36,955 bases of DNA from a virus (Duplodnaviria > Caudoviricetes). A program made the position numbers and the translations under genes. Position 1 is the first letter of the stretch. The number at the start of each line of letters is the position of its first letter. This document shows positions 159 through 15,225 of the stretch, piece after piece. The notes beneath the pieces were generated by a model, which did not search any database, had not been told where the DNA came from, and saw only the letters and a list, made by a program, of their open reading frames with translations. The DNA lies in the IMG/VR virus record IMGVR_UViG_3300049173_000026, positions 1 to 36,955 of that record. One strand, 5' to 3'.

Positions 159-1673
159 ATGGGAATAGTAGTTGGCGGCTACGCGCGCATTAGCGACGTA
201 GGGGAACTCGGCGACGGCCGAGACGGTGAGGAAGGCGTCACCCGCCAGAAAGAGGACGTGCACGATCTCGTCCGGGTCCGCGACCTGACCTTGCACCGCA
301 TGTACGTCGACAACGACCTCTCCGCTTACAAGCGCAGGGTGACCCGGCCAGACTTTCGAGAGCTGGTGAACGACCTGGAGACGGCTGTCATCTCGGGTGT
401 AGCGGCCTACAACATCGACCGCATCACCAGGCAGCCGCGCGAGCTGGAGCAGCTCATCGACATCTACGCGACGGCCCGCCGTCCGATGGTGTTCGCCACG
501 ACGGCCGGTGACTACGACCTGTCCACCGACGATGGCCGGTTCAATGCCCGGCTGTACGTGATGATCGCGAACAAGTTCTCGGCGGACGCGGCACGCCGAG
601 TGGCCCGGCAGAAGAAGGCCGAGGCGATGCAGGGGAAGCCGCACAGGGGTCAGCGGCCCTTCGGCTGGCAGAGCGGCGGGGAGAAGACCGAACCGTTCGA
701 GGCCGAGCTGATCCGAAAGGCTCAGCGGGACATCCTGAACGGCAAGCTCTTGTCCGAGGTGCACGCCGAGTGGGCCCAACTGGGCATCACCAGTCCGCAG
801 ACTCCCGCCGGCAAGCCGATGTCCTTCTCCAGCGTCGAGTACATCGTGACGAACCCCCGGCTGTGCGGTTACCGGGCCTACGTGCCCCAGCAGGAGCGCG
901 AGAGGCGCGGCCGGGTCGACCTCGCCGAGTTCCTGCTCGAACGGACCGACGGAACGCCGATCGTCGGCTCGTGGGAGCCGATCTGCACCCCGGATGAGTG
1001 GCGGGCCGTGCGGGACGTACTGAAGGCCCGGAAGACGGAGGGCCGGGGCCGCAAGAAGGGCTCGACGGTCACGAAGCGGATGCTGACGAGCATCGCGCGA
1101 TGCGGCGAGTGCGGCCGGGGAATGTTCTCGGCGATCTACACGCGGGGCACCGTGAGCTACGAGAAGTACGGGTACTTCTACCTGTGCCGGAAGCCCGAGG
1201 GCGGATGCGGTTCGGTGTCCCGATCAGGACCGCCGGTCGAGGAACACGTCGAGCGCGTGCTCCTGGCGCACCTGGCGAACCTGTCGAAGGACTCTCGGCC
1301 GGGCCAAGCGCAGGACGACCCGGAGCTGATCAAGGCACGGCGGGATCTCGCGCAGGTCGAAGCGGACATGGCGGAAGCTCGGCAGCTCCGCGAGGCGGGC
1401 GAGTTCCCCCTCGGCGAGTTCGTGCGGGAGATCAAGCGCCTCGAAGGCAAGCGCGACGAGCTGTCGGTGAAGGTGGCCGGACTGAACGCCATGGGGCCGC
1501 AGACGGGCGCCTCGGCCGCCGAGCGGATCATCCGCGAATGGGAGACGTACACGGCCCCGATGAAGCGCGCCGTGATTCAGCGGTTCATCGAGGCCGTGGT
1601 GATCAGGAAGCAGCCGCGAGGCGGTAAGCACGCCTTCCGTCCGGACTTGATCGAAATCTTCTGGAAGAAGTGA
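159..1673 (+). CDS. int: Large serine integrase
   Basis: N-terminal YARIS catalytic motif, DNDLSAY and DRITR motifs, recombinase domain, zinc ribbon (CGECG...YLC...C) and coiled coil; 504 aa. Confidence 0.97.
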   Translation: MGIVVGGYARISDVGELGDGRDGEEGVTRQKEDVHDLVRVRDLTLHRMYVDNDLSAYKRRVTRPDFRELVNDLETAVISGVAAYNIDRITRQPRELEQLIDIYATARRPMVFATTAGDYDLSTDDGRFNARLYVMIANKFSADAARRVARQKKAEAMQGKPHRGQRPFGWQSGGEKTEPFEAELIRKAQRDILNGKLLSEVHAEWAQLGITSPQTPAGKPMSFSSVEYIVTNPRLCGYRAYVPQQERERRGRVDLAEFLLERTDGTPIVGSWEPICTPDEWRAVRDVLKARKTEGRGRKKGSTVTKRMLTSIARCGECGRGMFSAIYTRGTVSYEKYGYFYLCRKPEGGCGSVSRSGPPVEEHVERVLLAHLANLSKDSRPGQAQDDPELIKARRDLAQVEADMAEARQLREAGEFPLGEFVREIKRLEGKRDELSVKVAGLNAMGPQTGASAAERIIREWETYTAPMKRAVIQRFIEAVVIRKQPRGGKHAFRPDLIEIFWKK

Positions 1674-1685
1674 GCGAGGGGTGCG

Positions 1686-1793
1686 TCAGTCGTCGGCTTC
1701 GAGCCTGAACCGCTGACGCACCCACTCGATGTCTTCGGGCTTTGGTGCGGGCGCCTTCGCGAGTTCACGGGCGATCCACTCCTCGGTCGTCAC
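1686..1793 (-). CDS. Small protein (35 aa), candidate recombination directionality factor
   Basis: GTG overlaps the thyX stop (GTGA). Reads VTTEEWIARELAKAPAPKPEDIEWVRQRF and is convergent with int. Confidence 0.55.
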   Translation of the reverse strand: MTTEEWIARELAKAPAPKPEDIEWVRQRFRLEADD

Positions 1794-2515
1794 GGGGCGA
1801 CTCGCCCGTTCGCCTCGAAGGCGGTGTGGGTGACCGGCATCAGCTCGGCGAAGATCCGCTCGGCCTTCTCGGCGCACATCTCGATCTCGCGCTGAGGGTG
1901 GGAGACGAAGGCGGCGTCCTCGCGGTGGGTGCGGAGGCTGAGGAAGTTCATCAGGCCGCGAGGGTTCATGGTGACGTACATCGAGCTGTAGATGCCGACC
2001 GGCAGGGCTGCGCGGGCGATCTCGCGGGCGACGCCGGCAGACAGCATTCGCTCGTACGCCTCGTAGGCGGCCTCGTAGGCGGCGAGGAGAGAGACATCCA
2101 CGATGGCGAGCTGTTCGGCCGTGCCAGGCTCGAAGCGGTAGGCGCCCGCCTTGCCCACCTGGACGAGGTTGCGCTCGGCGGCCGGGATGTAGAAGGAGGG
2201 CCGAAGCTCGCGGTAGCGGGCAGACTCCTCGTTGTACGAGGCGATGCGGTGGCGCTGCCACTCGCGGAAGACGAAGATCGGAGCCTCGACGAACAGGGTC
2301 AGGCTGCCGTGTTCGAAGGGGCTGCCGTGCCGCTCGCGCATGAGGTAGCCGATCAGGCCCGCGTCGCGGTCCGTGTCCTCGCCGGGCTTGCCGAGGAAGG
2401 ACTTGTGGGTCTGGCCGACCGTGGAGACGCGGGCGGCTCGCACGACGGCCTTGTCCGAGACGTTGTGGTCGACGAGCTGCACGGTCATGTCGGAGCGGAG
2501 GTTGAGGGGGGTCAC
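1790..2515 (-). CDS. thyX: FAD-dependent thymidylate synthase ThyX
   Basis: RHRIASYNEESARY ThyX motif, HGSPFEH, AREIARAALP. GTG start at 2515 follows AAGGA. Confidence 0.96.
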   Translation of the reverse strand: MTPLNLRSDMTVQLVDHNVSDKAVVRAARVSTVGQTHKSFLGKPGEDTDRDAGLIGYLMRERHGSPFEHGSLTLFVEAPIFVFREWQRHRIASYNEESARYRELRPSFYIPAAERNLVQVGKAGAYRFEPGTAEQLAIVDVSLLAAYEAAYEAYERMLSAGVAREIARAALPVGIYSSMYVTMNPRGLMNFLSLRTHREDAAFVSHPQREIEMCAEKAERIFAELMPVTHTAFEANGRVAP

Positions 2516-2544
2516 GGCAGTTTCCTTCGGTCTCATGTTTACAG

Positions 2545-2787
2545 TCAGGCGGCGTAGTTGGCGGTGTGCTCCTCGTAGGAGCGGCGGGACTGCTTGGTCA
2601 GGTGCCACATGCCGAACTCGCACTCATAGGCGCGGTTCTCGCGGTTGATGGGGCCGCGCCCCCGGATCGTTTGGGCCTGTCGGTCGCGCTTGGCCTGGGC
2701 CCGGCCGAGGGCCTTCTCGGCGGAGCGCTTGTCGGGGAAGGCGCGCTTGTCGGAGCAGTCGCAGGTGTGGAAGTCGACGGTCTTCAT
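2545..2787 (-). CDS. Hypothetical protein, possible Zn-binding (C/H motifs)
   Basis: AAGGAG RBS; CDC...KRAF...RAYECEFGMWHLT. Confidence 0.8.
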   Translation of the reverse strand: MKTVDFHTCDCSDKRAFPDKRSAEKALGRAQAKRDRQAQTIRGRGPINRENRAYECEFGMWHLTKQSRRSYEEHTANYAA

Positions 2788-2808
2788 GGGGGTTCTCCTT
2801 CGGGCTGG

Positions 2809-3060
2809 TTACGGACGGGGCTTTGCGACCAGGCCCTTGCGTTGGGCCATGCGCATGTAGGTGAGGACGGTCTGACGCTGGACTTCGAGGTAGTCGGCGA
2901 GGTGACGGGCCGGGTTGAGTACGCCGTCGACCTCGGCCTGTACGTAGTGGGTGGCGAGGCGGACGAGGAAGGCGTCGGTGACGTGGTATCCCTCGCGGAG
3001 GGCTCGCAGCTCGGCGATCTCGGCTTCGGTCATCTTCGGGGCGCGGAGTGCGTCGGTCAT
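2809..3060 (-). CDS. Small HTH DNA-binding protein
   Basis: C-terminal PARHLADYLEVQRQTVLTYMRMAQRKGL is HTH-like. Confidence 0.7.
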   Translation of the reverse strand: MTDALRAPKMTEAEIAELRALREGYHVTDAFLVRLATHYVQAEVDGVLNPARHLADYLEVQRQTVLTYMRMAQRKGLVAKPRP

Positions 3061-3079
3061 GGCGGTATCCGTTCTGGGT

Positions 3080-3511
3080 TCACTTCGCCCGGAACTTGCC
3101 GCACGGGCAGGTGGGGAGTTGGCAAGCGCCTCGACCGGCGCTCGCTGCGGAGTGGGTAAAGGGTGCGTGGCCGCATTCGGGGTGGAAGCAGTAGCCCTTC
3201 CACCCCTTCTTGCCGTCCACGTTGGCCAACATCACTCCGGGGCTGTGGAGTTGGACGAGGCGGCCTGTGCCTCCGAACGCCATCTTCGAGGCGAAGGTCT
3301 TGATCTCCGCTTCGCTGCCGAACGGGCCGAAGTTCAGGCCGCGGTGACCGTCCGCCCATGTGTGGACGAGGGCGATCAGGTCGCGCATTTGGAGGATCGA
3401 GGCGATCTCCTTGATCAGGGCTTTCGCCATCTGGTCGGCGCTCTCGAAGGTGGGGTCCTCCAGGAGCGCCTTGACCGCCTCGACCTCTTCCTTCCGGGGG
3501 GTCAGTCGCAT
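3080..3511 (-). CDS. Hypothetical protein with C-terminal Cys/His cluster
   Basis: Phage-like codon use; CFHPECGH...H...C...CPC. Confidence 0.8.
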   Translation of the reverse strand: MRLTPRKEEVEAVKALLEDPTFESADQMAKALIKEIASILQMRDLIALVHTWADGHRGLNFGPFGSEAEIKTFASKMAFGGTGRLVQLHSPGVMLANVDGKKGWKGYCFHPECGHAPFTHSAASAGRGACQLPTCPCGKFRAK

Positions 3512-3540
3512 GGATCAACCTTAACACCCCGGTCTCATCT

Positions 3541-4107
3541 TTACATCGTGAGCGGGATGAGCTGCATCACACGGTCGTGAAGCTGGGCCACGGGCCCGTC
3601 GTTGCGGATCACGTCGTCGAACAGGTACCCGGCGAGGGCGTTCTCGCTGACGTGGTCCGCCTCGCGGATGAGCGTCTGGCCGGGGCGCTCGATGGCGATG
3701 ACCAGGCCGCCACGGTCGCGGATCGCTTCCGCCTCGTTGGGGAAGCGCACGTCGGTGATGACGGTCGGGGTGTCCCAGGACTCGAAGTCGCGGAACAGGG
3801 CGTCCACCCAGACGTTCTCGCCGAGGACGGCTCGGCCGCCCTCCGTGCCGAGCCGCTGGGAGTAGCCCCGCACGACCGGGTACATCTCCTTCACGTCCTC
3901 CCAGCCGTAGGTGTCGACCTCGTACCGCAGGGTGGTGGTCCCCTCGGCGTACTGGGGCTCGATCAGTACCGGGTCGAGGGCGTACAGCACCTCGCGCACC
4001 TTGTCGGCGAAGGCTCGGCGGGTCCAGCCGAGGTCGAGGAGGGCCTGTGCGGCGGTGTCCTTGCCCGAGCGCGCCGCGCCGGCAAGTCCGATCAGGGGGG
4101 CGGTCAT
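3541..4107 (-). CDS. Deoxynucleoside monophosphate kinase
   Basis: IGLAGAARSGKDT P-loop, AFAD, QRLGTE, ITDVRFPNE, HVSE motifs. Confidence 0.92.
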   Translation of the reverse strand: MTAPLIGLAGAARSGKDTAAQALLDLGWTRRAFADKVREVLYALDPVLIEPQYAEGTTTLRYEVDTYGWEDVKEMYPVVRGYSQRLGTEGGRAVLGENVWVDALFRDFESWDTPTVITDVRFPNEAEAIRDRGGLVIAIERPGQTLIREADHVSENALAGYLFDDVIRNDGPVAQLHDRVMQLIPLTM

Positions 4108-4131
4108 CTGTCTGTCTCTCTTTCGGTCGGG

Positions 4132-4488
4132 TCAGCCTTCGCGGCTGTCGAGGAGTCGGCACAGGCCGGGGGCGGTGACGCGGCCCTCGCAAACGTCGCA
4201 GTCGCAGTCGTGCAGGCAAGTGCCGCAGGTGGACTCGTCGCAGTAAGGGTCAGGCCCGTGCCAGTTGTGGGAGGGGTCGGGGTCCGGGCAACCCCAGGCT
4301 TCACAGCTCCGGTCCTTGGCCCACGTCGGGTAAACGATGTGCTCGCGGCGGCTGAGGAATCCGTGAACGAGCGGGCGGCCAGGGCAGTTGAAGCGGGAGC
4401 GGTCGGCGGTGTCCTGGCCTGTGAAGGCCGCCCGGCATCGGGTGCACTGAAGGCGGCCTTCGGGGCGCTTGCGCAGGTGGTGCTTCAC
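4132..4488 (-). CDS. Cys-rich hypothetical protein
   Basis: ATG overlaps the upstream stop; several CxxC pairs. Confidence 0.65.
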   Translation of the reverse strand: MKHHLRKRPEGRLQCTRCRAAFTGQDTADRSRFNCPGRPLVHGFLSRREHIVYPTWAKDRSCEAWGCPDPDPSHNWHGPDPYCDESTCGTCLHDCDCDVCEGRVTAPGLCRLLDSREG

Positions 4489-5231
4489 TCAGCAGCCGGG
4501 GCGCCGAACGCGGGGACGGGAGCGCCAAGTGTCCACGTCGGCTTGGACTTCGGGGCGGCGTCCTCGATGGCGGTTGCGAAGGACCACTCGCCTTCCATGA
4601 GGCTGCGGCGCATCTGAAGCTCGGCGTGGCGGCCCTGGAGTTCGCGGAGCATCCGGTCGACCTCCCGGTACTCGTCGCGGAGCTTGGCCGTGCGCTTGGC
4701 GCGCAGCTCGCGGGCGAGCGCGGCGGCCTTCGCGTGGACGAGGGCGGCGTCCTCCTGGTGGACGTTGACGAGGGCCTGGATCAGCTCGCGCGTCTTGTCG
4801 CGGGTGCCCCTCGGCGCCGGGTAGTCGTCGATGCCGCCCTCCCTGCGGCGCACGGAGAAGTTCCAGTCCATCTCGCGCTTCGTGTAGACGTGCACCCCTT
4901 CGGCCAGGGTCGACCCCCAGACTTCGAGGTCGCCCTCGCAGTCGGCGTAGTGGGCCCGGCCGTACCCGACATAGAAGCCGGACGGGAGGAACTCCCACGC
5001 GTTCTCGTTGGCTCCGTTCGTGTGCCAGGTGACGAGCGGCTCGTCGTACTTCGGCGTGATCCGGACCGTCCCGCGGATTCGGGGACCGGTCACCCGGTAG
5101 GCGGTCACCCACGGCCGGTCGGTGGTCGCCCACGGCTTGTCGTTGGGCTCCTCGGCCAGGCGCTCGAAGTAGACGGTCCCGAAGGACAGGCCGACGTGCC
5201 CGGCGTACTCGAAGGTCGCGTTCTCGTTCAT
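4485..5231 (-). CDS. Hypothetical protein
   Basis: Start MNENATF after a GAGAG RBS; C-terminal coiled coil. Confidence 0.8.
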   Translation of the reverse strand: MNENATFEYAGHVGLSFGTVYFERLAEEPNDKPWATTDRPWVTAYRVTGPRIRGTVRITPKYDEPLVTWHTNGANENAWEFLPSGFYVGYGRAHYADCEGDLEVWGSTLAEGVHVYTKREMDWNFSVRRREGGIDDYPAPRGTRDKTRELIQALVNVHQEDAALVHAKAAALARELRAKRTAKLRDEYREVDRMLRELQGRHAELQMRRSLMEGEWSFATAIEDAAPKSKPTWTLGAPVPAFGAPAAE

Positions 5232-5255
5232 GGTGTCTCTGCTCTCTCGCGAGGG

Positions 5256-5294
5256 GGCCGCCCCTGCCCTCTCCCTGTATGGGAAGGGGCGGCC
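5256..5294 (-). repeat. Conserved stem-loop, copy 1 (loop AUACAGGGAGA)
   Basis: GGCCGCCCC/GGGGCGGCC stem enclosing CTCTCCCTGT on +. Confidence 0.9.
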
Positions 5295-5320
5295 GTGATG
5301 GTGGGTCGTGCGGGGGGTGG

Positions 5321-5647
5321 TCAGTCGCCGTAGCACTGCGAGACGGGGATGCCCTCGCCTCGGGCGTGGCGGATGCAGTTCTCGGCGCACTCGGTGAAGA
5401 ACGCGAGGGCCTTCTCGGCGCCCTCGGCCGCGGTGCCGGCGGATTCGTAGCGGGAGTTCTGCATGCGGAGCAGGTCGTCGCCGAACATCAGGTAGAGACC
5501 CTCGCCGCTCCAGTAGATCCGGCCTCCGCCTCGCCAGTTGTTCGAGTTCAGCTCGTGGAAGACCGCGTCTCCGGTGATGCCGCGCTCGATGCGGACTCGG
5601 ACCGTGGCGCCGTCCGAGAGGGTCATGCGGTCGGTGTAAGGCTTCAT
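5321..5647 (-). CDS. Hypothetical protein
   Basis: Start MKPYTDR after GAGGAA. Confidence 0.8.
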   Translation of the reverse strand: MKPYTDRMTLSDGATVRVRIERGITGDAVFHELNSNNWRGGGRIYWSGEGLYLMFGDDLLRMQNSRYESAGTAAEGAEKALAFFTECAENCIRHARGEGIPVSQCYGD

Positions 5648-5669
5648 GTCGGGTTCCTCTCTGGGGTGA

Positions 5670-6251
5670 TCAGGCGGCCTGAACGGCGTTGCGGGCGGCG
5701 TAGAAGTCGAGGGCCTCGCGGGCCTGGGAGCGGGCATAGGTGCGGCCGTAGAAGCCGAAGCAAGAGTCGACGTGCTCCCACGTCTGCATGTGCTCGTCCT
5801 CGTCGTCGTCGCGGGTCCAGTCGGCGCGCTCCTCGACCACGAACCCCCACACGTCGCCCGAGGCCCACGCCTCGTACTCCTCCATCTCGGCTTCGATGTA
5901 GCCCTCGGTCAGGAGTCCGGCATCGAGTGCGACCGCCTCTTCGCCGGTCATGTACCAGAGGGAGCGGGGGCCGCCGGTCGGGGAGGACTCCAGCACGATT
6001 CCGCCGTGGAAGATCGAGACGTAGCGGGTGAAGGTGTCGATGCCCGTCCAGCGGTTCCACTTCAGGCGCTCCCACATCTCGGCGAGCGGGCCGCCGTCCA
6101 TGTCGACGGGGTGGTACTGCCCGCCGTGGGTGTCGATGGTGATGACGTGTGCGAGCGTCTCCGCGTCGTGGCGGGGGTTCTCGGCGTGCTCGTCGTGGAC
6201 CAGGCGCACGCGGAAGCGGCCGTCTTCAGTGGTGGCGAGAACGTCGGACAT
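5670..6251 (-). CDS. Hypothetical acidic protein
   Basis: Start MSDVLAT after AAGGAG; GDVWGFVVE...DSCFGFYG motif. Confidence 0.85.
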   Translation of the reverse strand: MSDVLATTEDGRFRVRLVHDEHAENPRHDAETLAHVITIDTHGGQYHPVDMDGGPLAEMWERLKWNRWTGIDTFTRYVSIFHGGIVLESSPTGGPRSLWYMTGEEAVALDAGLLTEGYIEAEMEEYEAWASGDVWGFVVEERADWTRDDDEDEHMQTWEHVDSCFGFYGRTYARSQAREALDFYAARNAVQAA

Positions 6252-6277
6252 GTGAGTCTCCTTCGAGGCGTCGGGGT

Positions 6278-6314
6278 GGGCCGCCCCGGCTCTCCCTGTG
6301 TGCAGGGGCGGCCC
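6278..6314 (-). repeat. Conserved stem-loop, copy 2
   Basis: GGGCCGCCCC/GGGGCGGCCC stem, loop ACACAGGGAGA on -. Confidence 0.9.
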
Positions 6315-6327
6315 GTGAGTGGGTGGG

Positions 6328-6744
6328 TCAGGCAGCGAGGGCCGCGACGGCGGCGCGAGCGTCCTTGTCCCAGTCGGGGAGGGCGAGGCCGAGTTCGATG
6401 TAGCGGGCGGCGCGGGCCTGGGCGCGGCTGGGTCCAGAGAACTTGCAGCCCTTGTGACGGCGCGGCGGGGCAGGATTCTTGCCCGTGCGCTCTCGCATGT
6501 GGCTGGGGTAGGGCTCGATGTCGACGGCGCACAGGCGGCAGTGCAGGGCCCATCGGTGCTCACTGCCGGGGTAGCCCTGGTGGACGCCCGCGCATCGGGT
6601 GCGGGTGCAGCCTTCCGGCTCGTCGACCGGAGTAGCCCGGAGGGCGTAGCCGAGTTCGAGCACGCGCGGCCAGACGGCGGCGAGGGAGTCTCGGTTGCGC
6701 TTGTTGTCGGGCAGGAAGGAGGAGAGGGACGGTCCGGCGGTCAT
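6328..6744 (-). CDS. Hypothetical protein with Cys/His motifs
   Basis: AAGGA RBS; fills the gap in the operon. Confidence 0.7.
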   Translation of the reverse strand: MTAGPSLSSFLPDNKRNRDSLAAVWPRVLELGYALRATPVDEPEGCTRTRCAGVHQGYPGSEHRWALHCRLCAVDIEPYPSHMRERTGKNPAPPRRHKGCKFSGPSRAQARAARYIELGLALPDWDKDARAAVAALAA

Positions 6745-6774
6745 GTGTCCTTGCCTTTCGGGGAGTTGGGGAGG

Positions 6775-6999
6775 TCAGTTGCCGTTGGCGCGGTCGAGGG
6801 CCTTGTCGGCATACGCGGTGAGGATTCGGCGGGCGATCTCGTGCTGTCGGTACTCGCCCGCCATGCGGGCGAGCGTCTGGCCGTAGGCGCCGAGGTAGCC
6901 GAGGTACGGGCCGAACTCCAAGGTCACGGCGTACTTCATGTCGGCGTCGATCTGCGCCTTCTCCTCGGTCAGGTCGATGTGGTCGCGGAGGTTCTTCAT
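6775..6999 (-). CDS. Hypothetical protein
   Basis: Start MKNLRDH after AAGAGG. Confidence 0.75.
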   Translation of the reverse strand: MKNLRDHIDLTEEKAQIDADMKYAVTLEFGPYLGYLGAYGQTLARMAGEYRQHEIARRILTAYADKALDRANGN

Positions 7000-7010
7000 G
7001 TCGGCCTCTT

Positions 7011-7343
7011 TCAGGCGGAGTTGGGGAAGTGGAAGCCCACGCGGGCCGCGTCGAGGAGGTCGTCGACCGCTTCGAGGAAGGAGCGCAGCGAGTCGTGCTC
7101 GCTCCAGGAGCCGGGCTCGTCTTCGAGGTAGGCGTCGAGGGCCTCGCGTGCCCACTCGACGCTGACGGCGGGGTCGGCGACGATCACGAGCGTGCCGGCG
7201 ACGTTGACCGCCCATACGTCGGAGCCATCGAGGTCGATGTCTCGGGGGTCGAGTTCGTGGGGCTGCTTGCCGTCGCACTGGAAGAGGCCATCCGGCCGGA
7301 GGCCGAAGCGGGCGCCGCATTCACCGCAGCGGATCGAGTCCAT
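7011..7343 (-). CDS. Hypothetical protein, N-terminal CxxC
   Basis: AAAGG RBS; CGEC...C...H. Confidence 0.75.
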   Translation of the reverse strand: MDSIRCGECGARFGLRPDGLFQCDGKQPHELDPRDIDLDGSDVWAVNVAGTLVIVADPAVSVEWAREALDAYLEDEPGSWSEHDSLRSFLEAVDDLLDAARVGFHFPNSA

Positions 7344-7365
7344 CGGGGTTGTAGCCTTTCGGTAG

Positions 7366-7402
7366 GGCCGCCCCTCCCCTCTCCCTGTGGGGAGAGGCGG
7401 CC
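7366..7402 (-). repeat. Conserved stem-loop, copy 3
   Basis: GGCCGCC/GGCGGCC outer stem, inner CUCCCC/GGGGAG stem, loop ACAGGGAGA. Confidence 0.88.
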
Positions 7403-7418
7403 TCTTGCGCGGGGGGGG

Positions 7419-7706
7419 TCAGTCCTTCGAGACGCTCGCGAGGATCTCCAACAGCTCGCCTACGGCCGCGTACTCGCTCGGGCTGACGTAGCGCCACTCC
7501 TCCTCGGGGAGCATCTCGACCGGCAGGGCGTAGACGAGCCGGGCCGCCGTCTGGGCGAGGTTCAGCAGGGTGTACGACTCCTGGGTGCCGGGGTCGTGGC
7601 CCTCCCGTCCCTTCTCGACCTCTCGGGCGATCGCGAGGACTTCGCGGGCGGATTCCTTGATCCGGTCGAGACCGATCGACTCGGGCTGTTCGATGGTGGG
7701 GAACAT
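7419..7706 (-). CDS. Hypothetical protein
   Basis: AGAGG RBS; high-GC3 codon pattern. Confidence 0.75.
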   Translation of the reverse strand: MFPTIEQPESIGLDRIKESAREVLAIAREVEKGREGHDPGTQESYTLLNLAQTAARLVYALPVEMLPEEEWRYVSPSEYAAVGELLEILASVSKD

Positions 7707-7730
7707 GTCTGCCTCTCTGGGCTGATCGGG

Positions 7731-7767
7731 GGCCGCCCCCCGCTCTCCCTGTGTGCAAGGGGCGGCC
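7731..7767 (-). repeat. Conserved stem-loop, copy 4
   Basis: GGCCGCCCC/GGGGCGGCC stem, loop ACACAGGGAGA. Confidence 0.9.
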
Positions 7768-7779
7768 GGTGAAGGTGTG

Positions 7780-8511
7780 TCAGGCGCTCAGCGCGCGGCG
7801 TCGCTGAGCGACGCGGGTCTGGCCGAGGTCGGCACGGTTGGCCGCCTCCCGTCCCGCGTCGAGGCCGCTTCCGCGACGACGCGCGGAGCCCTTAGGCGTG
7901 ACAGCGTTCGGGTAGGCCGCCGCGAAGCGGGCCTCGACCACGGCCTTGCGGTCCGCGAGGACCAGCTCTGTGGAACGGCCGGAAGCGGCTGCCGGGGCTT
8001 CCTGCTGGGCGCGGGCCTCGATCTCCCGGAGACGCTCGTCGATGCGGACGATGAACCCTCCGGCCCACGCCTTCCGGTAGGTGACCAGGCTTTCCCCACG
8101 CGCGGGGCGGCCCTGGCGCATGCCGTTGAACATCTGGAGCAGGAGCGAGGTGAACAGCAACTCCACCCGGTCGAGGTCGGACTCGTACCCGAAGATGTGG
8201 ACCTCGGTCCGGCCTCGACCAACGCGCCTCTTGATGCTCGTGCAGTGGAGAGCGTCGGCCACGTAGCCGAGGAGGTACAGGCGGTCGGTGGTGTAGCTGC
8301 CCTCGACGGTGATCACGCGGTCGCCAGGCCGGTCGGCGTTCGGGTCGGTGGCGGCGAGCATCGCGCGCTCGATCCCGTACTTCGCCATCAGCTCGGCGGC
8401 CTTGCCGAAGTACACCTCGGCCTCTTCCGGCGTGGTGGCCGAGTCCTCCGCCTTCGCGAGGAGAGCGCGGATCTTGGCGAGCTTGCCGTCTTCAGGCATG
8501 GGGGTAGCCAT
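7780..8511 (-). CDS. DUF2786-domain protein
   Basis: KLAKIRALLAKAE...EEAE...KAAELMAKYGI is the DUF2786 signature. Start MATPMPE after GAAAGG. Confidence 0.85.
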   Translation of the reverse strand: MATPMPEDGKLAKIRALLAKAEDSATTPEEAEVYFGKAAELMAKYGIERAMLAATDPNADRPGDRVITVEGSYTTDRLYLLGYVADALHCTSIKRRVGRGRTEVHIFGYESDLDRVELLFTSLLLQMFNGMRQGRPARGESLVTYRKAWAGGFIVRIDERLREIEARAQQEAPAAASGRSTELVLADRKAVVEARFAAAYPNAVTPKGSARRRGSGLDAGREAANRADLGQTRVAQRRRALSA

Positions 8512-8532
8512 GTCGGAACCTTTCGGGGGTTC

Positions 8533-8639
8533 GATGCGGGCTGGCATCGTCAGAGGGGAGGTACCGCCTCCCACTGACGCCCTCCCGTTGCGCCCGTACC
8601 GGGGGCGCAAGGGACTACAGGGCGTTTCGCCTTTGCATC
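8533..8639 (-). ncRNA. Type II hammerhead ribozyme (HHR-A)
   Basis: Minus strand: GGC-GAAAC-GCCC[hairpin]GGGC-GUC-AG(U)GGGAGG-CGGUA-CCUCCCCU-CUGACGA-U-GCC. All core nucleotides and three helices are present. Predicted cut between 8576 and 8575. Confidence 0.88.
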
Positions 8640-8647
8640 CGGTGAGG

Positions 8648-8893
8648 TCAGGCGGCGAGCAGCTCCCAGCCGTCGAGGATGTGGCCGATGGCCGCCCCGT
8701 CGATGTGGGCCTTCGCTGCCGCCTCGCGCTCCTCGTACGTCGGCAGGTCGAAGTTCATGACCACCTGCTCGCGGGGGCTGACCTCGAAGGGCTCGAAGAA
8801 CCCTGCGATCACCACGTCACCGATCCGGAGGAGGAGAGAGATTGCGCCGCAGTCGGGGGCGAAGAAGGCGATCTGGTCGTCGGGCTTGATCAT
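8648..8893 (-). CDS. Hypothetical protein (81 aa)
   Basis: ORF fills the space between stem-loop copy 5 and HHR-A. Confidence 0.7.
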   Translation of the reverse strand: MIKPDDQIAFFAPDCGAISLLLRIGDVVIAGFFEPFEVSPREQVVMNFDLPTYEEREAAAKAHIDGAAIGHILDGWELLAA

Positions 8894-8918
8894 GATGTGG
8901 CTCGCTTTCGTGAAGGGT

Positions 8919-8953
8919 GGGCCTCCCCGCTCTCCCTGTGTGCAGGGAGGCCC
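8919..8953 (-). repeat. Conserved stem-loop, copy 5
   Basis: GGGCCTCCC/GGGAGGCCC stem with a compensatory change, loop ACACAGGGAGA. Confidence 0.9.
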
Positions 8954-8966
8954 GAGGGGTGAGGGG

Positions 8967-9428
8967 TCAGACGGTCGCGGCGCGCATGGCGTCGCGTACG
9001 GCGGTGAGTGCGGTCTTCAGCTCGGCGAACTTCCCCGCGTTCTTCTCGGCGCGGTCCCGCTCCCAGACCCAGATGTCGCGGTACACCTCGTCGTCGGAGT
9101 CGCCTTCCAGGAGCTTTCGGGCCCGGTCGTTCTCGACCAGCTCGTACGCCTCGCGGCGGACCACCGCTCCCAGGAGCGCTTCCCAGTGGGTTGCGATCAG
9201 CTCGGCGTCGTCCATGAACCGCCACGAGACGGCGTGGTGCAGTCCGGCCGCGTGATCGGCTCGCTGGTGGTACTCCTTGGCCATGTGCGCCAGGCCCTTG
9301 TTCTCGTACTTGCGGGCCATGAGCCGGAACTCTTGGCGGTCGTAGCTGAGGGCGAGGCAGTAGTGCGCGCTGTGCGAGAGCAGGGTGCCGGCGGCAGCCT
9401 TCACCGCGGATTCGACCTGGGGGTCCAT
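8967..9428 (-). CDS. Hypothetical helical protein (153 aa)
   Basis: GAGGA RBS; high-GC3 codon pattern. Confidence 0.8.
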   Translation of the reverse strand: MDPQVESAVKAAAGTLLSHSAHYCLALSYDRQEFRLMARKYENKGLAHMAKEYHQRADHAAGLHHAVSWRFMDDAELIATHWEALLGAVVRREAYELVENDRARKLLEGDSDDEVYRDIWVWERDRAEKNAGKFAELKTALTAVRDAMRAATV

Positions 9429-9457
9429 GTGTCCTCACGTTCGTGTGCTGGGGGTCG

Positions 9458-9529
9458 ACGCTGGCTGGCATCGTCAGAGGGGAGGTACCGCCTCCCGCTG
9501 ACGCCCCGAGGGGCGTTTCGCCTTTGCGT
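9458..9529 (-). ncRNA. Type II hammerhead ribozyme (HHR-B)
   Basis: Minus strand: ACGC-AAA-GGC-GAAAC-GCCC-CUCG-GGGC-GUC-AG(C)GGGAGG-CGGUA-CCUCCCCU-CUGACGA-U-GCC-AGCCA-GCGU. Predicted cut between 9500 and 9499. Confidence 0.9.
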
Positions 9530-9587
9530 GTTGGGGGCCGCCCCTCCCCGAGAGGGGGAGGTCAGGGAGGGACGGCAGTACAGGGGG

Positions 9588-9905
9588 TTAGCGCCGGTAG
9601 ACGGGGATCGGGGTGTCGGGGTCGCCTTCCCAGGTGATCCACTCGTCGTAGAAGCCGATGCGGATCTGAGTCCGGCCCTCGCGGGTCTCTCTGATCAGGA
9701 CCCGGCCGACTCGCCAACCGTCAGACCGGTAACGCGAGGGCTTGGCGGCCAGGCCGATGATCTGGTCACCGCCCTTGATCTCGCGGGCCGGGACCGGCTC
9801 GGACATCACGGCGCACTGGTGGCTCGGCGAACGGTGGACCTCGAAGTCGCGGTAGACCGGGCGGGGAACCTTGCGCATCTCGGGGATGCCGATGTCCTCA
9901 CGCAC
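9588..9905 (-). CDS. Hypothetical protein (start uncertain: 9905 GTG or 9878 ATG)
   Basis: Overlaps the upstream stop; plausible beta-rich small protein. Confidence 0.6.
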   Translation of the reverse strand: MREDIGIPEMRKVPRPVYRDFEVHRSPSHQCAVMSEPVPAREIKGGDQIIGLAAKPSRYRSDGWRVGRVLIRETREGRTQIRIGFYDEWITWEGDPDTPIPVYRR

Positions 9906-10710
9906 CGGCCACCGCCAAGGCGAGCTGGCCGGGGATCTCGTTGCGCATGAAGGCGCGACCGAGGTCGAGGAAGTGCTCGTCGCGGGCCTCGTCGTACGCC
10001 TCGCGCACCTCGTTCCAGGACGCATGACCGTCCTCGTCGCGGTACTCCAGGTCGTACAGGGCCTCGGCCCCCAGCTCGACGATGGACTTGTGGTCGGCCT
10101 CGGTGTCGTACGGGAAGTGCATCTTCACGTCGTCGAGGGCCTCTTCGAGGTTCTTCTCGAACACCTCGCGGCGCTGCTGGTCGTAGTCGTCCTCGTCGAG
10201 GAACGGGTACTCGTGCTCGATGTGCTCGACCAGGGCGACGGCCGTACGGAACGCTGCGGTGTAGGTGCGGGTTCCGTGGCAGTCTCCGGTGCAGTCCTGC
10301 CCGTAGCAGATATCCACGAGCGGGTCGCAGTTCGGGGCACACTCCTGCCCATGGGTGCCGGCGCAGTCCTCGGGGCATCCGCCCTCGTAGACCTGGACGA
10401 AGAGTTGCGCCACGTCCCAGGCGGAGGACCCACCGCCGCACTCGTAGACCTGCTCGTCGGACACCTCCGTGTCCGTGCGCCCCTCGTCGGCGGCGCAGAT
10501 GATCAGATCACGGGCGACCTCGAAGTTCGACTTGTGGCCGATCCATCCGGTTCGGTCGTCGTGCCAGGTGAACAGCTCGACGTGCGTCGACTCGTCTTCC
10601 GTGCCGTACGTTCCCGTTTTCCAGGAGGGCCAGGAGCGGTAAGCGTCGTCGAGGTATGCCGCGTACTTGGCGAGCACTTCCTCGGAAGGGGCGGGGTAGT
10701 CGGAGTACAT
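9898..10710 (-). CDS. Hypothetical acidic protein with Cys-rich insert
   Basis: Start MYSDYPA after GAGGA; YPFLDEDDY motif. Confidence 0.82.
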   Translation of the reverse strand: MYSDYPAPSEEVLAKYAAYLDDAYRSWPSWKTGTYGTEDESTHVELFTWHDDRTGWIGHKSNFEVARDLIICAADEGRTDTEVSDEQVYECGGGSSAWDVAQLFVQVYEGGCPEDCAGTHGQECAPNCDPLVDICYGQDCTGDCHGTRTYTAAFRTAVALVEHIEHEYPFLDEDDYDQQRREVFEKNLEEALDDVKMHFPYDTEADHKSIVELGAEALYDLEYRDEDGHASWNEVREAYDEARDEHFLDLGRAFMRNEIPGQLALAVAGA

Positions 10711-10732
10711 GTGTCCTCGCATTCGAGAGAGG

Positions 10733-10771
10733 GGCCGCCCCTGCCCTCTCCCTGTGTGGGAAGGGGCGGCC
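10733..10771 (-). repeat. Conserved stem-loop, copy 6
   Basis: GGCCGCCCC/GGGGCGGCC stem, loop ACACAGGGAGA; nearly identical to copy 1. Confidence 0.9.
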
Positions 10772-10793
10772 GGGTCAATGTTTACACCGGGGC

Positions 10794-11195
10794 CTAGTAG
10801 TCGACGGTCTCGACGAAACCGGCGTCCTCACGGTCGGCGAGCTGCGCTTCCAGCTCCGCGATCCGCTGACGCGCCTTGTCGTAGGCGTACGACACCTCGT
10901 CCAGTCGGGTCCGCAGGTGGAAGGCGATGGACAGCAGGTCGAACCGCTGCACGTCGGGCTTCGAGAGGTTGACCGGCCGGGCCTGCTTCGGGGCCTCCAT
11001 CTGGGCGATCACCTGGGGGGTGATGAAGACGAACCCCCCGCAGTAGGAGCACCGCTCCTCGGCGTCCCGCTCGGACACCTCCGCCTCGTAGAAGGCGAAG
11101 TCGATGCACTGGTAGCACCTGAAGTCGCCGTCCGACTTCTTGACCCCGACCCGTTTGCCGTACTCGCGGTCGGCGTCGCTGAACACGTACTCCAT
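10794..11195 (-). CDS. Hypothetical protein, CxxC...CxxC zinc finger plus coiled coil
   Basis: CYQC...CSYC; AAGG RBS; first gene of the leftward arm. Confidence 0.78.
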   Translation of the reverse strand: MEYVFSDADREYGKRVGVKKSDGDFRCYQCIDFAFYEAEVSERDAEERCSYCGGFVFITPQVIAQMEAPKQARPVNLSKPDVQRFDLLSIAFHLRTRLDEVSYAYDKARQRIAELEAQLADREDAGFVETVDY

Positions 11196-11220
11196 GTGAC
11201 CTTACCCTTCGAGCTTGGCT

Positions 11221-11289
11221 GGTCTCAAGTTTACACCAGCCGCTTTGTTTCGCCGAACCGGGCTGGTTCGGCGTGGTCTCAACTTTACC
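11221..11289 (-). promoter_or_regulatory. Two copies of an asymmetric operator/stoperator-like motif (GTAAASWTGAGACC)
   Basis: GGTCTCAAGTTTACA at 11221-11235 and GGTCTCAACTTTACC at 11275-11289. Further copies at 2529, 3531, 10772 (degenerate) and 16880. Confidence 0.7.
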
Positions 11290-11402
11290 ACACTCTCGGA
11301 GTGGAGTTTCGCGTTTGGCCTGGTCAGCGGTAGGCACTCCCATTGTCCTACCGCCCGGACCGTTGGCCGGTCGCTTCCCTCCCGAACCTTGCGGCCCGTT
11401 CG

Positions 11403-11541
11403 GTGGTGTGGTCACACCTTAACACGTTTCCCGGTCCGTTCCGCAACCCCCTTGCGTGAACTGCGGTTTCCCGGTCCTGCGTGCCATTCCGTCCGTCCCG
11501 TTGCCGGGCCGTTCGTCGTGGTGTGGTCACACCTTAACACG
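11403..11541 (-). promoter_or_regulatory. Tandem leftward early promoters with an overlapping palindromic operator
   Basis: 24-bp direct repeat GTGGTGTGGTCACACCTTAACACG at 11403-11426 and 11518-11541. On - it reads TGtTAAGGT (extended -10-like) overlapping the GGTGTG-N2-CACACC palindrome. Confidence 0.65.
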
Positions 11542-11915
11542 ACCGACCGACCGCACCACAACCCCCCGTTTCTCGCCGCTCCCTGGGGTGCCGCAGTCCC
11601 TAGCCTCTATACGCGCGTGCGCACCTGCCCGCTCTGGCCTGGTGTGCGCTGTGTGCGCTGCCTGGCCCTGCCCTGTGCCCTTGTGTGCTCTCTGCCCTGT
11701 GTGTGCGCTGCTGTGCACTGACGTGCCTATGCGAACCGACATACACTCGATGCACGCATGTGGGCAAGTGTGTCCGTTTGTGCCCCTAGACGGCCGGCCT
11801 GGTGCTTCAATGTCCGATTCACACCCAAACGGCCGGCCTGGTCGACGTGCGTCCGATTCGACCAGCCATGGGCGGAGGGGTGGGGGTATGACCCCGGCTC
11901 GGCGTCTTTCCCGGC

Positions 11916-11926
11916 CGCCACGTCTT
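11916..11926. other. Probable cos site (11-nt cohesive end CGCCACGTCTT)
   Basis: Lies in the long non-coding gap between the divergent arms and resembles the 11-nt 3' overhangs I recall for R4-like Streptomyces phages. Confidence 0.65.
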
Positions 11927-12064
11927 AGCAGCTCGGATTCTGCCACGGTTCCAGGGTCGACGTGATCGCTAGCGCGCACCCCGCAGCGCCGCGCGTTTCC
12001 ACAGGTCAGCGGCGGTAGAGACGTTCTGCAGGGCATCCGCCGGCACTGCACAAGAATGGGCGCC

Positions 12065-12337
12065 TCACGTGCCGTCACTGCCGCGAGCCAGCGCTTGCAG
12101 GTACCCCACGGCGAACGCGTTTGGGTCGTCAGCGTCGCTCGCTTGCGCCAGGGCGAAGAGGAGTCGCTTGTTCATGTCCAGCAAGGCGAGGGCGCCCGTC
12201 ACCTCGCCGTTGCCTCCCCAGTCCCCCTTCCTCCTCTCCCAGTGGTTCAGGGCCTCCAGCGCCCCGTTTGGCCCGAGATACAGCGTGAGCAGCTCGACTG
12301 CGATCGCAAGAGGCTGGGGCTCGTCCGGGGCGTCCAT
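12065..12337 (-). CDS. Hypothetical protein
   Basis: MDAPDEPQ... plausible helical ORF; weak RBS. Confidence 0.45.
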   Translation of the reverse strand: MDAPDEPQPLAIAVELLTLYLGPNGALEALNHWERRKGDWGGNGEVTGALALLDMNKRLLFALAQASDADDPNAFAVGYLQALARGSDGT

Positions 12338-12761
12338 GTCTCGACCGTAACGGGGGGGTGGTGCGTCGCGCTCGCTGAGCGAAGTACGTCTTCGCGTCTT
12401 CATGAAGGGGCGGCCGACAGGCCGCCACAGCCGCTCGCCGCCTTCACGCTGTCCGCCCTCCGGGCGGCATCACTCCTTCGCCGCTGCACTTCTCCGCCGT
12501 CGCCCTTCGGGCGCCGCCGAAGTGTGACCGAGGTCACGTACGTTCGTCTTTCCGGAATCAAGATCAACTAGCGACTTATAAGTGTAAGTACGTAAGTCGC
12601 AAGGCTCGCAAGGCTTGAGCCCCTGGCGGGGCTCGCCTGCATGAAGACGCCTTGCGTAATTCGCGCGTTCGCGAATTGCAGGCTTGGCCCCGCAGGGGCC
12701 ACCTGATGAAGACGAAGTACGTACGCACGTATTCACGTACTTCGCTCGCGAGGGGGTCTTC

Positions 12762-13271
12762 TTGGAGATCCTCGAACTCTGCGCCGGTTACGGCGGGCTG
12801 GGTATGGCTGTAGCTCCCCTGGTCAGCGGTCGCGTGGCGTACGTCGCCGAGACCGCGCCAGGCCCGAGTGCAGTCCTCGCCGAAAGGTATCCGGACGCTC
12901 CGAACCTCGGCGACATCCGCGAAATCGACTGGACCGAGCTTGTCGGCCTGGTCGAAGTAATCACCGCAGGCTTCCCCTGCCAGGACATCTCGATTGCGGG
13001 GAACCGGGTTGGAATTCGAGGCTCTCGTTCTGGAGTCTGGGTCAATGTCGTTGACGCAATTCGCGTCATACGACCGAAGCTCGTCTTCTTGGAAAACGTC
13101 TCGAACATCCGGACGCGCGGGCTCGAAGTCGTCCTCGCTGACCTGGCCGAGATCGGGTACAGCGCGCGATGGGTGTGCGTACGAGCTACCGCAGCTCAAG
13201 CCCCTCACCTCCGTGACCGCTGGTTCTGTATCGCGACCCCTGAAGACGCCGACCGCGAACTTGGGCACTAA
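12762..13271 (+). CDS. C5 cytosine DNA methyltransferase, N-terminal/catalytic part (motifs I-VIII)
   Basis: ELCAGYGG (I), GDI, AGFPCQDIS (IV), LENV (VI), PHLRDRWF (VIII). TTG start after GAGGGGG. Confidence 0.9.
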   Translation: MEILELCAGYGGLGMAVAPLVSGRVAYVAETAPGPSAVLAERYPDAPNLGDIREIDWTELVGLVEVITAGFPCQDISIAGNRVGIRGSRSGVWVNVVDAIRVIRPKLVFLENVSNIRTRGLEVVLADLAEIGYSARWVCVRATAAQAPHLRDRWFCIATPEDADRELGH

Positions 13272-13683
13272 CGGCGGCGCCCGTCACCCTGACGAACGTC
13301 GAGCTGGTGGTCACGGCCCCACGCTCGACGACGAGGCGTGCTACCTCCTCCCCTACTCGGACGCGATCCGGGAAGGCCGCGAGCCGGAAGCCGCGGTGGA
13401 CGGGCCGCAGTCTCCCGCGCACTGGTGGGGCGAGTACCTCCCCGCCATCCGGCAGTGGGAGGAAGTGACCGGCCGCGCCGCTCCCCCGCCTACCGAGCCG
13501 GGCCGCAAGGGCGGACCCCGTGTAACCGTCGAGTGGGTTGAGTGGCTCATGGGCCTCCCCCTCGGCCACGTGACCGGCGTCCCCGGCCTGACGCGCGGAC
13601 AACAGCTCCAGATCCTCGGTAACGGCGTCGTCGTGCAGCAGGCGACGACCGCGTACGCGGCACTCCTCGACCTGGGGGTCTGA
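13045..13683 (+). CDS. C5 DNA methyltransferase, C-terminal part (motifs IX-X), overlapping frame
   Basis: EWLMGLPLGHVT (IX) and QLQILGNGVV (X). ATG at 13045 with GGAG upstream. Confidence 0.8.
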   Translation: MSLTQFASYDRSSSSWKTSRTSGRAGSKSSSLTWPRSGTARDGCAYELPQLKPLTSVTAGSVSRPLKTPTANLGTNGGARHPDERRAGGHGPTLDDEACYLLPYSDAIREGREPEAAVDGPQSPAHWWGEYLPAIRQWEEVTGRAAPPPTEPGRKGGPRVTVEWVEWLMGLPLGHVTGVPGLTRGQQLQILGNGVVVQQATTAYAALLDLGV

Positions 13684-13997
13684 TGCCGAACTGGGCTTCA
13701 TCCGACCGGCGCGAGAGGTTGCCGGCGGATTGGCCGAAGATCCGACTTCGCGTCCTTCGCAGGGACGGGAACCGCTGCACGGCCCGCGATCAGTACGGGC
13801 AGCGCTGCGAGGAACCGGCCACGGACGTAGATCACATCGTGCCTGGTGATGACCATCGAGAGACCAACCTACGAGCACTCTGCGGGTTTCATCACCAGGC
13901 CAAGTCCTCTCGCGAGGGAGCCCTCGCACTCGCCGCACGGCGGCGCCGGATCGACAAGCGCTTCAAGCGGACGGAGGCCCATCCGGGGCTTCTCTAA
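13683..13997 (+). CDS. HNH endonuclease (packaging-associated)
   Basis: VLRRDGNRC...C...DVDHIVP...NLRALCGFHHQAKS; upstream of the terminase genes. Confidence 0.93.
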   Translation: MPNWASSDRRERLPADWPKIRLRVLRRDGNRCTARDQYGQRCEEPATDVDHIVPGDDHRETNLRALCGFHHQAKSSREGALALAARRRRIDKRFKRTEAHPGLL

Positions 13998-14007
13998 GGA
14001 GGTGGCC

Positions 14008-14232
14008 GTGTTCACTGCCGCATGGGTCGGATGGATCGCCGCCTTCTGCGTAATCGAGGGCGTGGCCCTCTACCGGCGCCAGCCCGGCGACACCCTGTCC
14101 GAGCACGTCTGGAAGTGGTTCCACACCGCGAAGGACACCGTGCCGGACCGGACAACCCGGCTGCGGCGCTTCGTCCTAGTCGCGTTCCTGGCCTGGCTCT
14201 CCGCCCACTTCCTGACGGGCGGGACGTTCTGA
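14008..14232 (+). CDS. Small membrane protein
   Basis: AAGGAGGT RBS; two hydrophobic segments; GDTLSEHVWKWF. Confidence 0.8.
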   Translation: MFTAAWVGWIAAFCVIEGVALYRRQPGDTLSEHVWKWFHTAKDTVPDRTTRLRRFVLVAFLAWLSAHFLTGGTF

Positions 14233-14412
14233 TTCCCCCGCACCTGTAGTGCTCTCATCGCCCTCGCTATCCGACTTGAGGGCGGACAGCATCTCGCGCA
14301 CCGCGCGGATGAGTTCGGGAAGTTGCTTGATGAGCTGAACGAGCAACGTTACGACCAGGCTCAGCAGACCGAAGACCGCAAGGACGGTCAAGGTAAGGGA
14401 ATTCCAGTCCAC
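14176..14412 (-). CDS. Small single-pass membrane protein on the opposite strand (moron-like)
   Basis: N-terminal TM segment LTLTVLAVFGLLSLVVTLLVQLI followed by an amphipathic helix; lower GC. Confidence 0.5.
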   Translation of the reverse strand: MDWNSLTLTVLAVFGLLSLVVTLLVQLIKQLPELIRAVREMLSALKSDSEGDESTTGAGESERPARQEVGGEPGQERD

Positions 14413-14763
14413 TTGCTTCAGTGCCTTCCAGTTCTAAGAGGGTCGAACTGGAAGCGGGCAGCCTCAGTTCGACCACCGACTTCGTGGTTCGTGAACTGAG
14501 AGACTGCCGACGCACGCAATCATCCTCGGGCGGTGCCAACGCCTGGGTTGAGCTGTTCCTCCATCTCAGCAGCAGAGGCGGCTCGTTCCGCCCCTCACTT
14601 GGGTGCTACCTGCCGGGGCCAGATGCCCCCTGCGTCACGGGGTCACGGCCACACTGACAAGCACCCGACGGGCCAAGGCCCGAGATAGTCACCCCGAGTG
14701 CAGGGCGCTGAAGCTGACGATACACAACTCACAGCAAGATCATGCGGGTTGGAGGTGTGGCTC

Positions 14764-15192
14764 ATGCCCGGCCCCGTGCCCAACCGTGAAGCCGACCTGG
14801 CCCGCCCACGCGAACGCAAGGGCAGCGATGTCCAGTCGGTGACGCGTGGCCTCGCCCGGCCTACGAAGGTCCCGAACGGCGACCGCTCCTGGCATCCGAT
14901 CGCGAAGCGCCTGTGGGACTCCCTGAAGGAGTCCGGCCAAGCCGACTTCTACCAGGCGTCCGACTGGGCCCTCGCGTACTCCCTCTGCGAAGACCTCTCC
15001 TTCTACAAGAAGTCGGGGAAGCGGTCGGGTCAGATGCTCCAGACCATCTACAGCGCCTTCGAGCGACTCCTCGTCGCCGAGGGCGACCGGCGCCGTGTGC
15101 GCATCGAACTGCATGAGCCCGAGCCCGAGGAGCAGTCCGCGGCCGTGCTCGCCATTGCCGACTATAAGAAGGATCTCGGACTCGCCGAGTGA
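14764..15192 (+). CDS. terS: Terminase small subunit
   Basis: MPGPVP start, WHPIAKRLWDSLKESGQ, EGDRRRVRIEL; GGAGG RBS; precedes terL. Confidence 0.88.
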   Translation: MPGPVPNREADLARPRERKGSDVQSVTRGLARPTKVPNGDRSWHPIAKRLWDSLKESGQADFYQASDWALAYSLCEDLSFYKKSGKRSGQMLQTIYSAFERLLVAEGDRRRVRIELHEPEPEEQSAAVLAIADYKKDLGLAE

Positions 15193-15225
15193 GTCCCTCC
15201 CTGTCGGCCCGAACGCCGAGGGGAG

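Follow-up and report, generated by a model that had tools for sequence, protein, structure and literature searches.

What is the role of a stem-loop that recurs six times between the early genes of one temperate phage, each time shortly before a start codon? The stem-loops lie in the window analysed here, a stretch of 36,955 nucleotides that comprises positions 1 to 36,955 of the virus record IMGVR_UViG_3300049173_000026. The window is, to judge from its genes, an Arquatrovirinae-like (cluster BD) temperate prophage of Streptomyces, and its early arm is a leftward series of small genes without assigned function (1790-11195). The hairpin family is a real, previously undescribed structured element; no description of it was found in the main texts of the openly readable literature. 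The reading that we favor, with a probability of about 0.42, is that the hairpins are punctuation marks in the early mRNA that are read by a protein and are either cut or turned into a transcript boundary.

The 9-mer ACAGGGAGA occurs exactly six times in the window, always on the minus strand, which is the strand of the early transcript (5270, 6291, 7380, 7744, 8931 and 10747). In 300 shuffled sequences that roughly keep the dinucleotide content it occurs 0.28 times on average and at most twice. The initial annotation of this DNA had placed a stem-loop around each of these loops (Table 1), and all six fold there, with GC stems of 12-14 bp, energies of -27.7 to -35.6 kcal/mol and z scores of -2.6 to -4.7. 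The stem changes with compensatory partners that it described are also present. Five copies have an 11-nt loop in which AC or AT precedes the 9-mer, and the copy at 7366 has a 9-nt loop. The stems begin 12-26 nt past the preceding stop codon and are separated from the next ATG by 24, 26, 22, 24, 25 and 22 nt; the annotation had recognized this pattern but gave each distance one higher (25, 27, 23, 25, 26 and 23) by its counting convention. It was right that U tails are lacking, since all 57 unique copies now available have at most three T in the first 8 nt after the stem, and 52 of them have fewer than three. A terminator scan called none of the six. Rfam, searched with positions 1-17000 at E values up to 10, matched only the hammerheads of the early arm and gave no family for the hairpins.

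Hairpin copies, 71 in all, are present in 14 related prophage records (the window and 13 more), with 3-7 copies per record. The 13 further records came from scans with the loop pattern and from protein-led searches. To offset the dependence of pattern scans on the loop, 12 arms were also screened for every strong hairpin whatever its loop, which gave 86 hairpins on the transcript strand: 55 with the loop 8-mer ACAGGGAG, one with an inverted loop and 30 others, four of which belong to a family with a C-rich loop. An ungapped register fits 65 of the 71 copies and yields 95.9% paired cells, compared with 69.7% after partners are shuffled, a control that ignores kinship among the copies. At the second pair counted from the loop, CG is found 37 times, GC 26 times and TA twice. 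On the transcript strand 40 G-U pairs stand against 8 A-C mismatches, and this strand is therefore the one that folds. Action as RNA is the simplest reading of these data, with single-stranded DNA as the alternative.

Thirteen records, with 64 copies between them, have ACAGGGAG as an invariant 8-mer, while the identity of arm positions ranges from 0.46 to 0.97. The ninth loop base varies (A in 48, C in 5 and T in 4 of the 57 unique copies). The remaining record, G411 (L413), carries ACAGGGAA in short loops in all seven of its hairpins and ACAGGGAG in none, and the core common to all 14 records is ACAGGGA. The loop invariance first described thus holds for the 9-mer in the window and narrows across relatives to 8 nt, or to these 7 nt with G411. 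Conservation in homologous phages, on which the initial annotation had staked its proposal, is borne out in that the loop is kept in related prophages. The similarity of arms and flanks is 0.712 for copies in the same slot of different phages, 0.566 for different slots of the same phage and 0.571 when neither is shared, and the G411 hairpin in the slot of the zinc-ribbon gene still matches the same slot elsewhere best. Because the arms are slot-specific, the copies have not been homogenized in bulk. A loop that is fixed, and that was switched genome-wide on slot-specific stems, points to selection by a trans-acting partner and not to bulk conversion of repeats. We infer that this selection comes from a partner that recognizes the loop sequence and varies from lineage to lineage. 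A phage protein would be the simplest candidate, and a host factor that is not the same in all host species is possible. The G-U bias, the loop conservation and the genome-wide switch together support the earlier proposal that the RNA strand carries a sequence-specific element.

In sister prophages that lack ACAGGGAG, hairpins in the same slots have repeated loops of their own. These are GTTGGAGG (three in G156, two in G353a and two in L421), TCGGAAG (two in L417 and two in G353b) and TACGAGG (two in L415). As with ACAGGGAG, the loop of the GTTGGAGG hairpins is 9 nt long ahead of the zinc-ribbon gene and longer in the other slots. Every loop family is rich in purines and has GGA or GAG as its core. 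Same-slot families with these three loops or with GGTGAAG were observed across L464 (G156), L462 (G353), L421, L414, L415, L417, L420 and L423.

The same gene junctions are occupied by other elements in relatives. The early-arm gaps of nine isolated phages were examined with patterns, which may miss variants. tRNA-like folds are the sole gap element in Yosif (9), phiHau3 (7), Zemlya (7) and Vanseggelen (7), and hammerheads are the sole gap element in TrvxScott (11), Celia (10), Paedore (12) and R4 (8); the pattern search of the gaps of mycobacteriophage Alma gave no such element. The early arm of the window combines six hairpins with two hammerheads, and the only sign of a T-loop hairpin on an acceptor-like stem there is one T-loop-like match inside a gene. 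Single gene families illustrate the exchange. Genes of the PHROG 4313 family follow a tRNA-like fold in four phages, a hammerhead in Celia, Paedore, R4, G404 and G001, and a ACAGGGAG-type hairpin in the window, G405 and G410. The element 5' of the 193-aa gene is a tRNA-like fold in Yosif and a hairpin in the window. Since the hairpin shares its slots with hammerheads and tRNA-like folds, it would also make a message boundary, and this is the main argument for our reading. Processing, one of several options in the initial annotation, is strengthened by it.

Both of the other elements are unannotated. The tRNA-like folds, 7-9 per phage, were seen in L037 (Yosif), L039 (phiHau3), L040 (Zemlya), L270 (Vanseggelen) and L429; they consist of an acceptor-like stem, a GG-containing bulge, a T-loop hairpin and an AC tail, have no family match in Rfam, and are candidate punctuation marks for RNase P and RNase Z. 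The sequence CAGGGAGA is common to the hairpin loop and to the 5' strand of these folds, probably by coincidence, because in the folds it forms a covarying stem. Type II hammerhead-like elements number 8-12 per early arm in L038 (TrvxScott), L271 (Celia), L272 (Paedore), L273 (R4) and L465 (G130), and several annotated genes overlap them, so that the start codons of these genes are probably wrong. Cleavage in vitro by tandem hammerheads that stem from native polycistronic regions of other bacteria is described in passages of PMC3088659.

Under the favored reading the hairpins would be a family of RNA stem-loops between the cistrons of the early arm, marking the sites at which a long early message is split. 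A protein specific for the loop sequence of the lineage, and probably encoded by the phage, likely reads the loop; it would cut the message or fix a transcript boundary at the hairpin, as hammerheads, and likely tRNA-like folds, do at the same junctions in related phages. The products would be gene-sized mRNAs. A narrower form, which we put forward tentatively, is a lineage-specific RNA code of temperate Streptomyces phages: every lineage would encode a small endoribonuclease or adaptor of its own that reads the loop, co-evolves with the hairpin tag and splits the early message into gene-sized units. Such a code would be a third solution, interchangeable with self-cleaving ribozymes and tRNA mimics. 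With three solutions at the same junctions, the role of the hammerheads could be tested by swapping parts, which is feasible in culturable phages (R4, phiHau3) and in Streptomyces lysogens. If a phage protein specific to the lineage reads each loop, ACAGGGAG, ACAGGGAA, GTTGGAGG, TCGGAAG and TACGAGG would be orthogonal pairs of RNA tag and protein, useful for the engineering of Streptomyces operons.

Several observations weigh against this reading. A sequence-only MAFFT alignment of 53 copies gives 68% paired cells overall, a value reached in 71 of 500 shuffles, and its pair counts lend little support to the outer stem and clear support only to the inner one (CG 26, GC 22). The loop switch is a single event, in one of 14 records, and G411 is itself partly homogenized (0.608 versus 0.559). 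One copy in G405 has two loop changes, and one in G404 (L253:3717-3777) has its loop exactly inverted between the stem arms; a similar inverted-looking loop was observed in L417 before its gene of the 95-aa family. Some sister hairpins keep the outer stem but have short, unconserved loops. The role ascribed to the tRNA-like folds is likewise a proposal. Where a hammerhead adjoins the hairpin, a second cut would be redundant if both cut, and some sister prophages have few elements (no hammerhead in L414, one in G173), so that cutting would be dispensable at some junctions. Pfam gave no nuclease or RNA-binding family for the early genes other than the open reading frame (ORF) at 4485-5231, and models of the 133-aa and 138-aa early proteins (pLDDT 73 and 84) had no informative fold match.

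RNase III hairpins in the early mRNAs of T7, SP82 and SPO1 are intercistronic processing signals. Such early-operon signals, among them the tandem type II hammerheads of PMC3088659, resemble the hairpins of the window in being structured, repeated between small early genes and located shortly before ribosome-binding sites. Unlike them, the element is a plain hairpin of 12-14 bp, shorter than typical RNase III sites and without a ribozyme core; it is a single stem-loop that lacks the CUGANGA and GAAA core and the three-way junction of a hammerhead. Its fixed part is the loop, which changes by lineage, and cleavage is here a prediction. By analogy the hairpin would work most like an early-operon processing signal with a boxB-like, lineage-specific loop.

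The most serious rival, though an unlikely one, is that the hairpins are terminators or attenuators without a U tract, with read-through controlled by a loop-binding phage protein at N-type checkpoints behind the first gene. In sequence, the GC stems (-28 to -36 kcal/mol), which stand 12-26 nt after stop codons and mostly have fewer than three U, match a U-less (I-shaped) terminator, at which transcript release would be expected. The first hairpin comes after the first gene and an operator-like motif. A canonical intrinsic terminator is not matched, as there is no U tract, and loops of 9-11 nt are long for terminators. U-less terminators are said, going by the title of a 1995 paper by Ingham, to occur in the early region of phiC31, an actinophage. 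Structured 3' ends without a U tract (HS-U-lack) outnumber U-rich ends 353 to 182 in Streptomyces Term-seq data given in sections of PMC8269248, and these are likewise GC-rich intergenic hairpins. The present hairpins differ from them in an invariant loop under lineage-specific selection and in a distance of just 22-26 nt to the next start, which therefore leaves no room for a following promoter. Mycobacterial RNA polymerase, moreover, requires a U tract according to parts of PMC3993855, six terminators within 5.5 kb would require efficient read-through, and the ribozymes in the same slots of relatives do not stop transcription. A phage-specific, purine-rich loop on a stem of the early transcript does recall the boxB and N of lambdoid nut sites, as described in passages of PMC8632103. 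Nut sites, however, are single and near the promoter, whereas here 3-7 intergenic copies with 9-11-nt loops are found; all six copies of the window follow the first gene, none is in the leader, and an arginine-rich N-like protein was not identified. Doubt falls on the boxB-type antitermination proposed initially, as the element recurs between genes and does not lie near a promoter. The order of elements is also relevant to termination. Four of the 71 copies have a hammerhead 21-38 nt downstream, none lies on the 3' side of one, and sister prophages show the same order, which fits a checkpoint followed by a cut. Such an order speaks for an effect on elongation or on the upstream 3' end, and it leaves regulated termination without a U tract as the main rival.

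The same order bears on translation. A hairpin 5' of a hammerhead would be left on the upstream fragment and would have no control over translation of the next gene. In a further proposal, which the initial annotation had raised as a GGA-loop regulator, a CsrA-like or coat-like protein would use the loop as its operator and regulate translation of the gene downstream; this is weakened accordingly and is now improbable. The near-constant distance to the start codon speaks for it, as does the likeness of the loop core ACAGGGA, GGA included, to the CsrA motif ACANGGA of CsrA/RsmA sites. Against it, the stem ends 22-26 nt short of the ATG and is clear of the ribosome-binding site, several hairpins are associated with the upstream gene as closely as with the downstream gene, and CsrA (PF02599) is found in neither of two host genomes with such prophages and in none of 27 phage proteins. 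Host enzymes alone might suffice if the hairpins were stabilizing or Rho-trimming structures (a 3' barrier, or a substrate of RNase III or RNase P) whose loop is kept by descent, by folding or by a loosely specific host factor. RNase P substrates have a stem starting with G and an NCC tail; most of the stems begin with G, and 35 of 57 unique copies end in NCC. The sister hairpins with the same outer stem and unconserved loops, and the purine-rich GGA or GAG core of all loop families, would also fit. This explanation is nevertheless quite unlikely, because the C-rich 3' tails are matched by 5' flanks that are just as C-rich, eight loop positions stay fixed in 64 copies while the arms vary, all seven G411 loops were switched together, and the hairpin was seen, within the scans made, in this prophage group alone. 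The least probable alternative, and a very improbable one, is that the elements are DNA repeats acting mainly as joints for the shuffling of early-gene cassettes, as suggested for promoter-bearing stem-loops (PeSLs) at the junctions of a hypervariable small-gene region in T4-like phages (PMC4122927). Neighbors do vary at the junctions (22 upstream/downstream combinations among 71 copies, some neighbors being unassigned), two window copies are 98% identical, and the inverted loop in G404 implies a rearrangement at the DNA level. Yet recombination needs neither compensated stems nor a strand-biased G-U pattern nor a fixed loop, the unit lacks the sigma-70 promoter and U tail of a PeSL, and none of five joints in four DNA runs links two hairpins, although contigs drop rare variants. 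Shuffling may be a side effect of the hairpins. Overall the initial interpretation stands in part: a sequence-specific RNA element is supported and processing is strengthened, a translational regulator is weakened, boxB is doubtful, a pure DNA repeat does not account for compensated stems with a fixed loop, and no binding protein was identified.

Two genes of the arm are present in all hairpin-bearing records, the 133-aa first gene and the gene of the 138-aa Arg/Cys/His-rich protein. The product of the first gene is an unproven candidate for the loop binder. The early proteins of G411 show no outstanding excess of changes; the first gene is the highest in the arm (3/28), and in its product His replaces a Cys that is otherwise nearly invariant. 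Protein P0079 shares residues with this G411 product. A group-specific protein of about 90 aa encoded in the middle of the genome is another possible binder. The 138-aa protein is a doubtful binder, since its gene also occurs in five other elements without the hairpin; it has no match in isolated phages, its distant matches are often near contig ends, and Atlas gave only weak leads to CapR and DUF723. The 153-aa protein (no lead in Atlas) and the 110-aa protein were rejected because their genes were not found in G002, which has four hairpins. For an RNA partner, antisense or kissing, no conserved complement was present among 8 records. A complement of the loop at the terminase junction (15196-15204) is not conserved, and a pseudoknot of the hairpin with its own C-rich 3' flank was ruled out by reasoning on geometry.

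One copy of the hairpin compared by blastn with 50,697 phage records gave a single chance match. True copies in a scan of genome contigs (6 of 64 parts, 123 loci) were limited to L117-L120 and L145. A pattern search of 401 genomes of the genus Streptomyces matched four, three of them prophages; a single match in G283 has a chromosomal context and is within chance, as a reversed control pattern matched 16 genomes. Scans with the loop alone through viral (45 of 64 parts) and metagenome (29 of 64 parts) sequences revealed no multi-copy locus outside the group, and the ACAGGGAA variant is multi-copy in G411 alone among 26 loci.

Table 1. Hairpins and other features of the early arm of the window.
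Feature	Position	Strand	Remarks
Hairpin	5256..5294	-	Before 248-aa gene (4485-5231); 98% identical to the 10733 copy
Hairpin	6278..6314	-	Before 193-aa gene (5670-6251)
Hairpin	7366..7402	-	Before 110-aa zinc-ribbon gene (7011-7343); 9-nt loop
Hairpin	7731..7767	-	Between DUF2786 gene and 95-aa gene (7419-7706)
Hairpin	8919..8953	-	Before 81-aa gene (8648-8893); compensated G-C to U-A stem change
Hairpin	10733..10771	-	After first early gene, before 270-aa PHROG 4313 gene (9898-10710); 11-nt loop
Hairpin of other family	9537..9576	-	C-rich loop; directly 5' of hammerhead
Type II hammerhead	9459..9523	-	Before 153-aa gene; RF02276, 37 bits, at gathering threshold
Type II hammerhead, extended stem	8535..8632	-	Before DUF2786 gene; RF02276, 28.5 bits, E 0.031, below gathering threshold
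138-aa protein	6328-6744		Arg/Cys/His-rich, highly conserved; also in unrelated Streptomyces elements
First early gene	10794..11195	-	133 aa; Cys-rich N-terminal domain and coiled coil; in 14 hairpin-bearing records
Operator-like TGTAAACATTGA motif	10775..10786	-	Few nt 5' of first hairpin; relatives arranged alike
Two tandem TGTTAAGGT extended -10-like boxes	11531-11539, 11416-11424 (span 11416..11539)	-	By eye

The copies at 5256 and 10733 are probably related by a recent conversion. The hairpin with the C-rich loop at 9537-9576 is also present in G403, G406 and G407 and in sister prophages, and it moves together with the upstream cassette.

The TGTTAAGGT boxes, read by eye, are candidate early promoters; a scan of positions 1700-12000 with the sigma-70 consensus called no promoter. 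The TGTAAACATTGA motif may be stoperator-like. An oriented, intergenic motif resembling TGTAAAC(A/T)TG was observed on the minus strand of the window at 11235, 10786, 3545, 3526 and 2543; it is kept within the hairpin group, sister prophages have other motifs there, and it is stoperator-like or -10-like. An operator-like or -10-like motif lies 5' of just one of the six hairpins.

The window is a virus record estimated at 73% completeness. The portal protein shares about 75% identity with its counterparts in Streptomyces cluster BD phages, Zemlya and Lika among them. The window encodes a serine integrase, ThyX and a dNMP kinase, and packaging and tail genes follow the early arm. Positions 1-122 are host-like DNA adjoining the integrase (an attachment junction), and because the window start resembles host DNA at this place, the window is probably a prophage fragment without a replication module. 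The terminase large subunit matches in two frames (15226-15591 and 15536-16876), which suggests a frameshift or a sequence error. Two further ORFs lie between the early promoters and the packaging genes, a DNA methyltransferase-like ORF of 195 aa, possibly partial, at 12684-13271 and an HNH endonuclease at 13683-13997.

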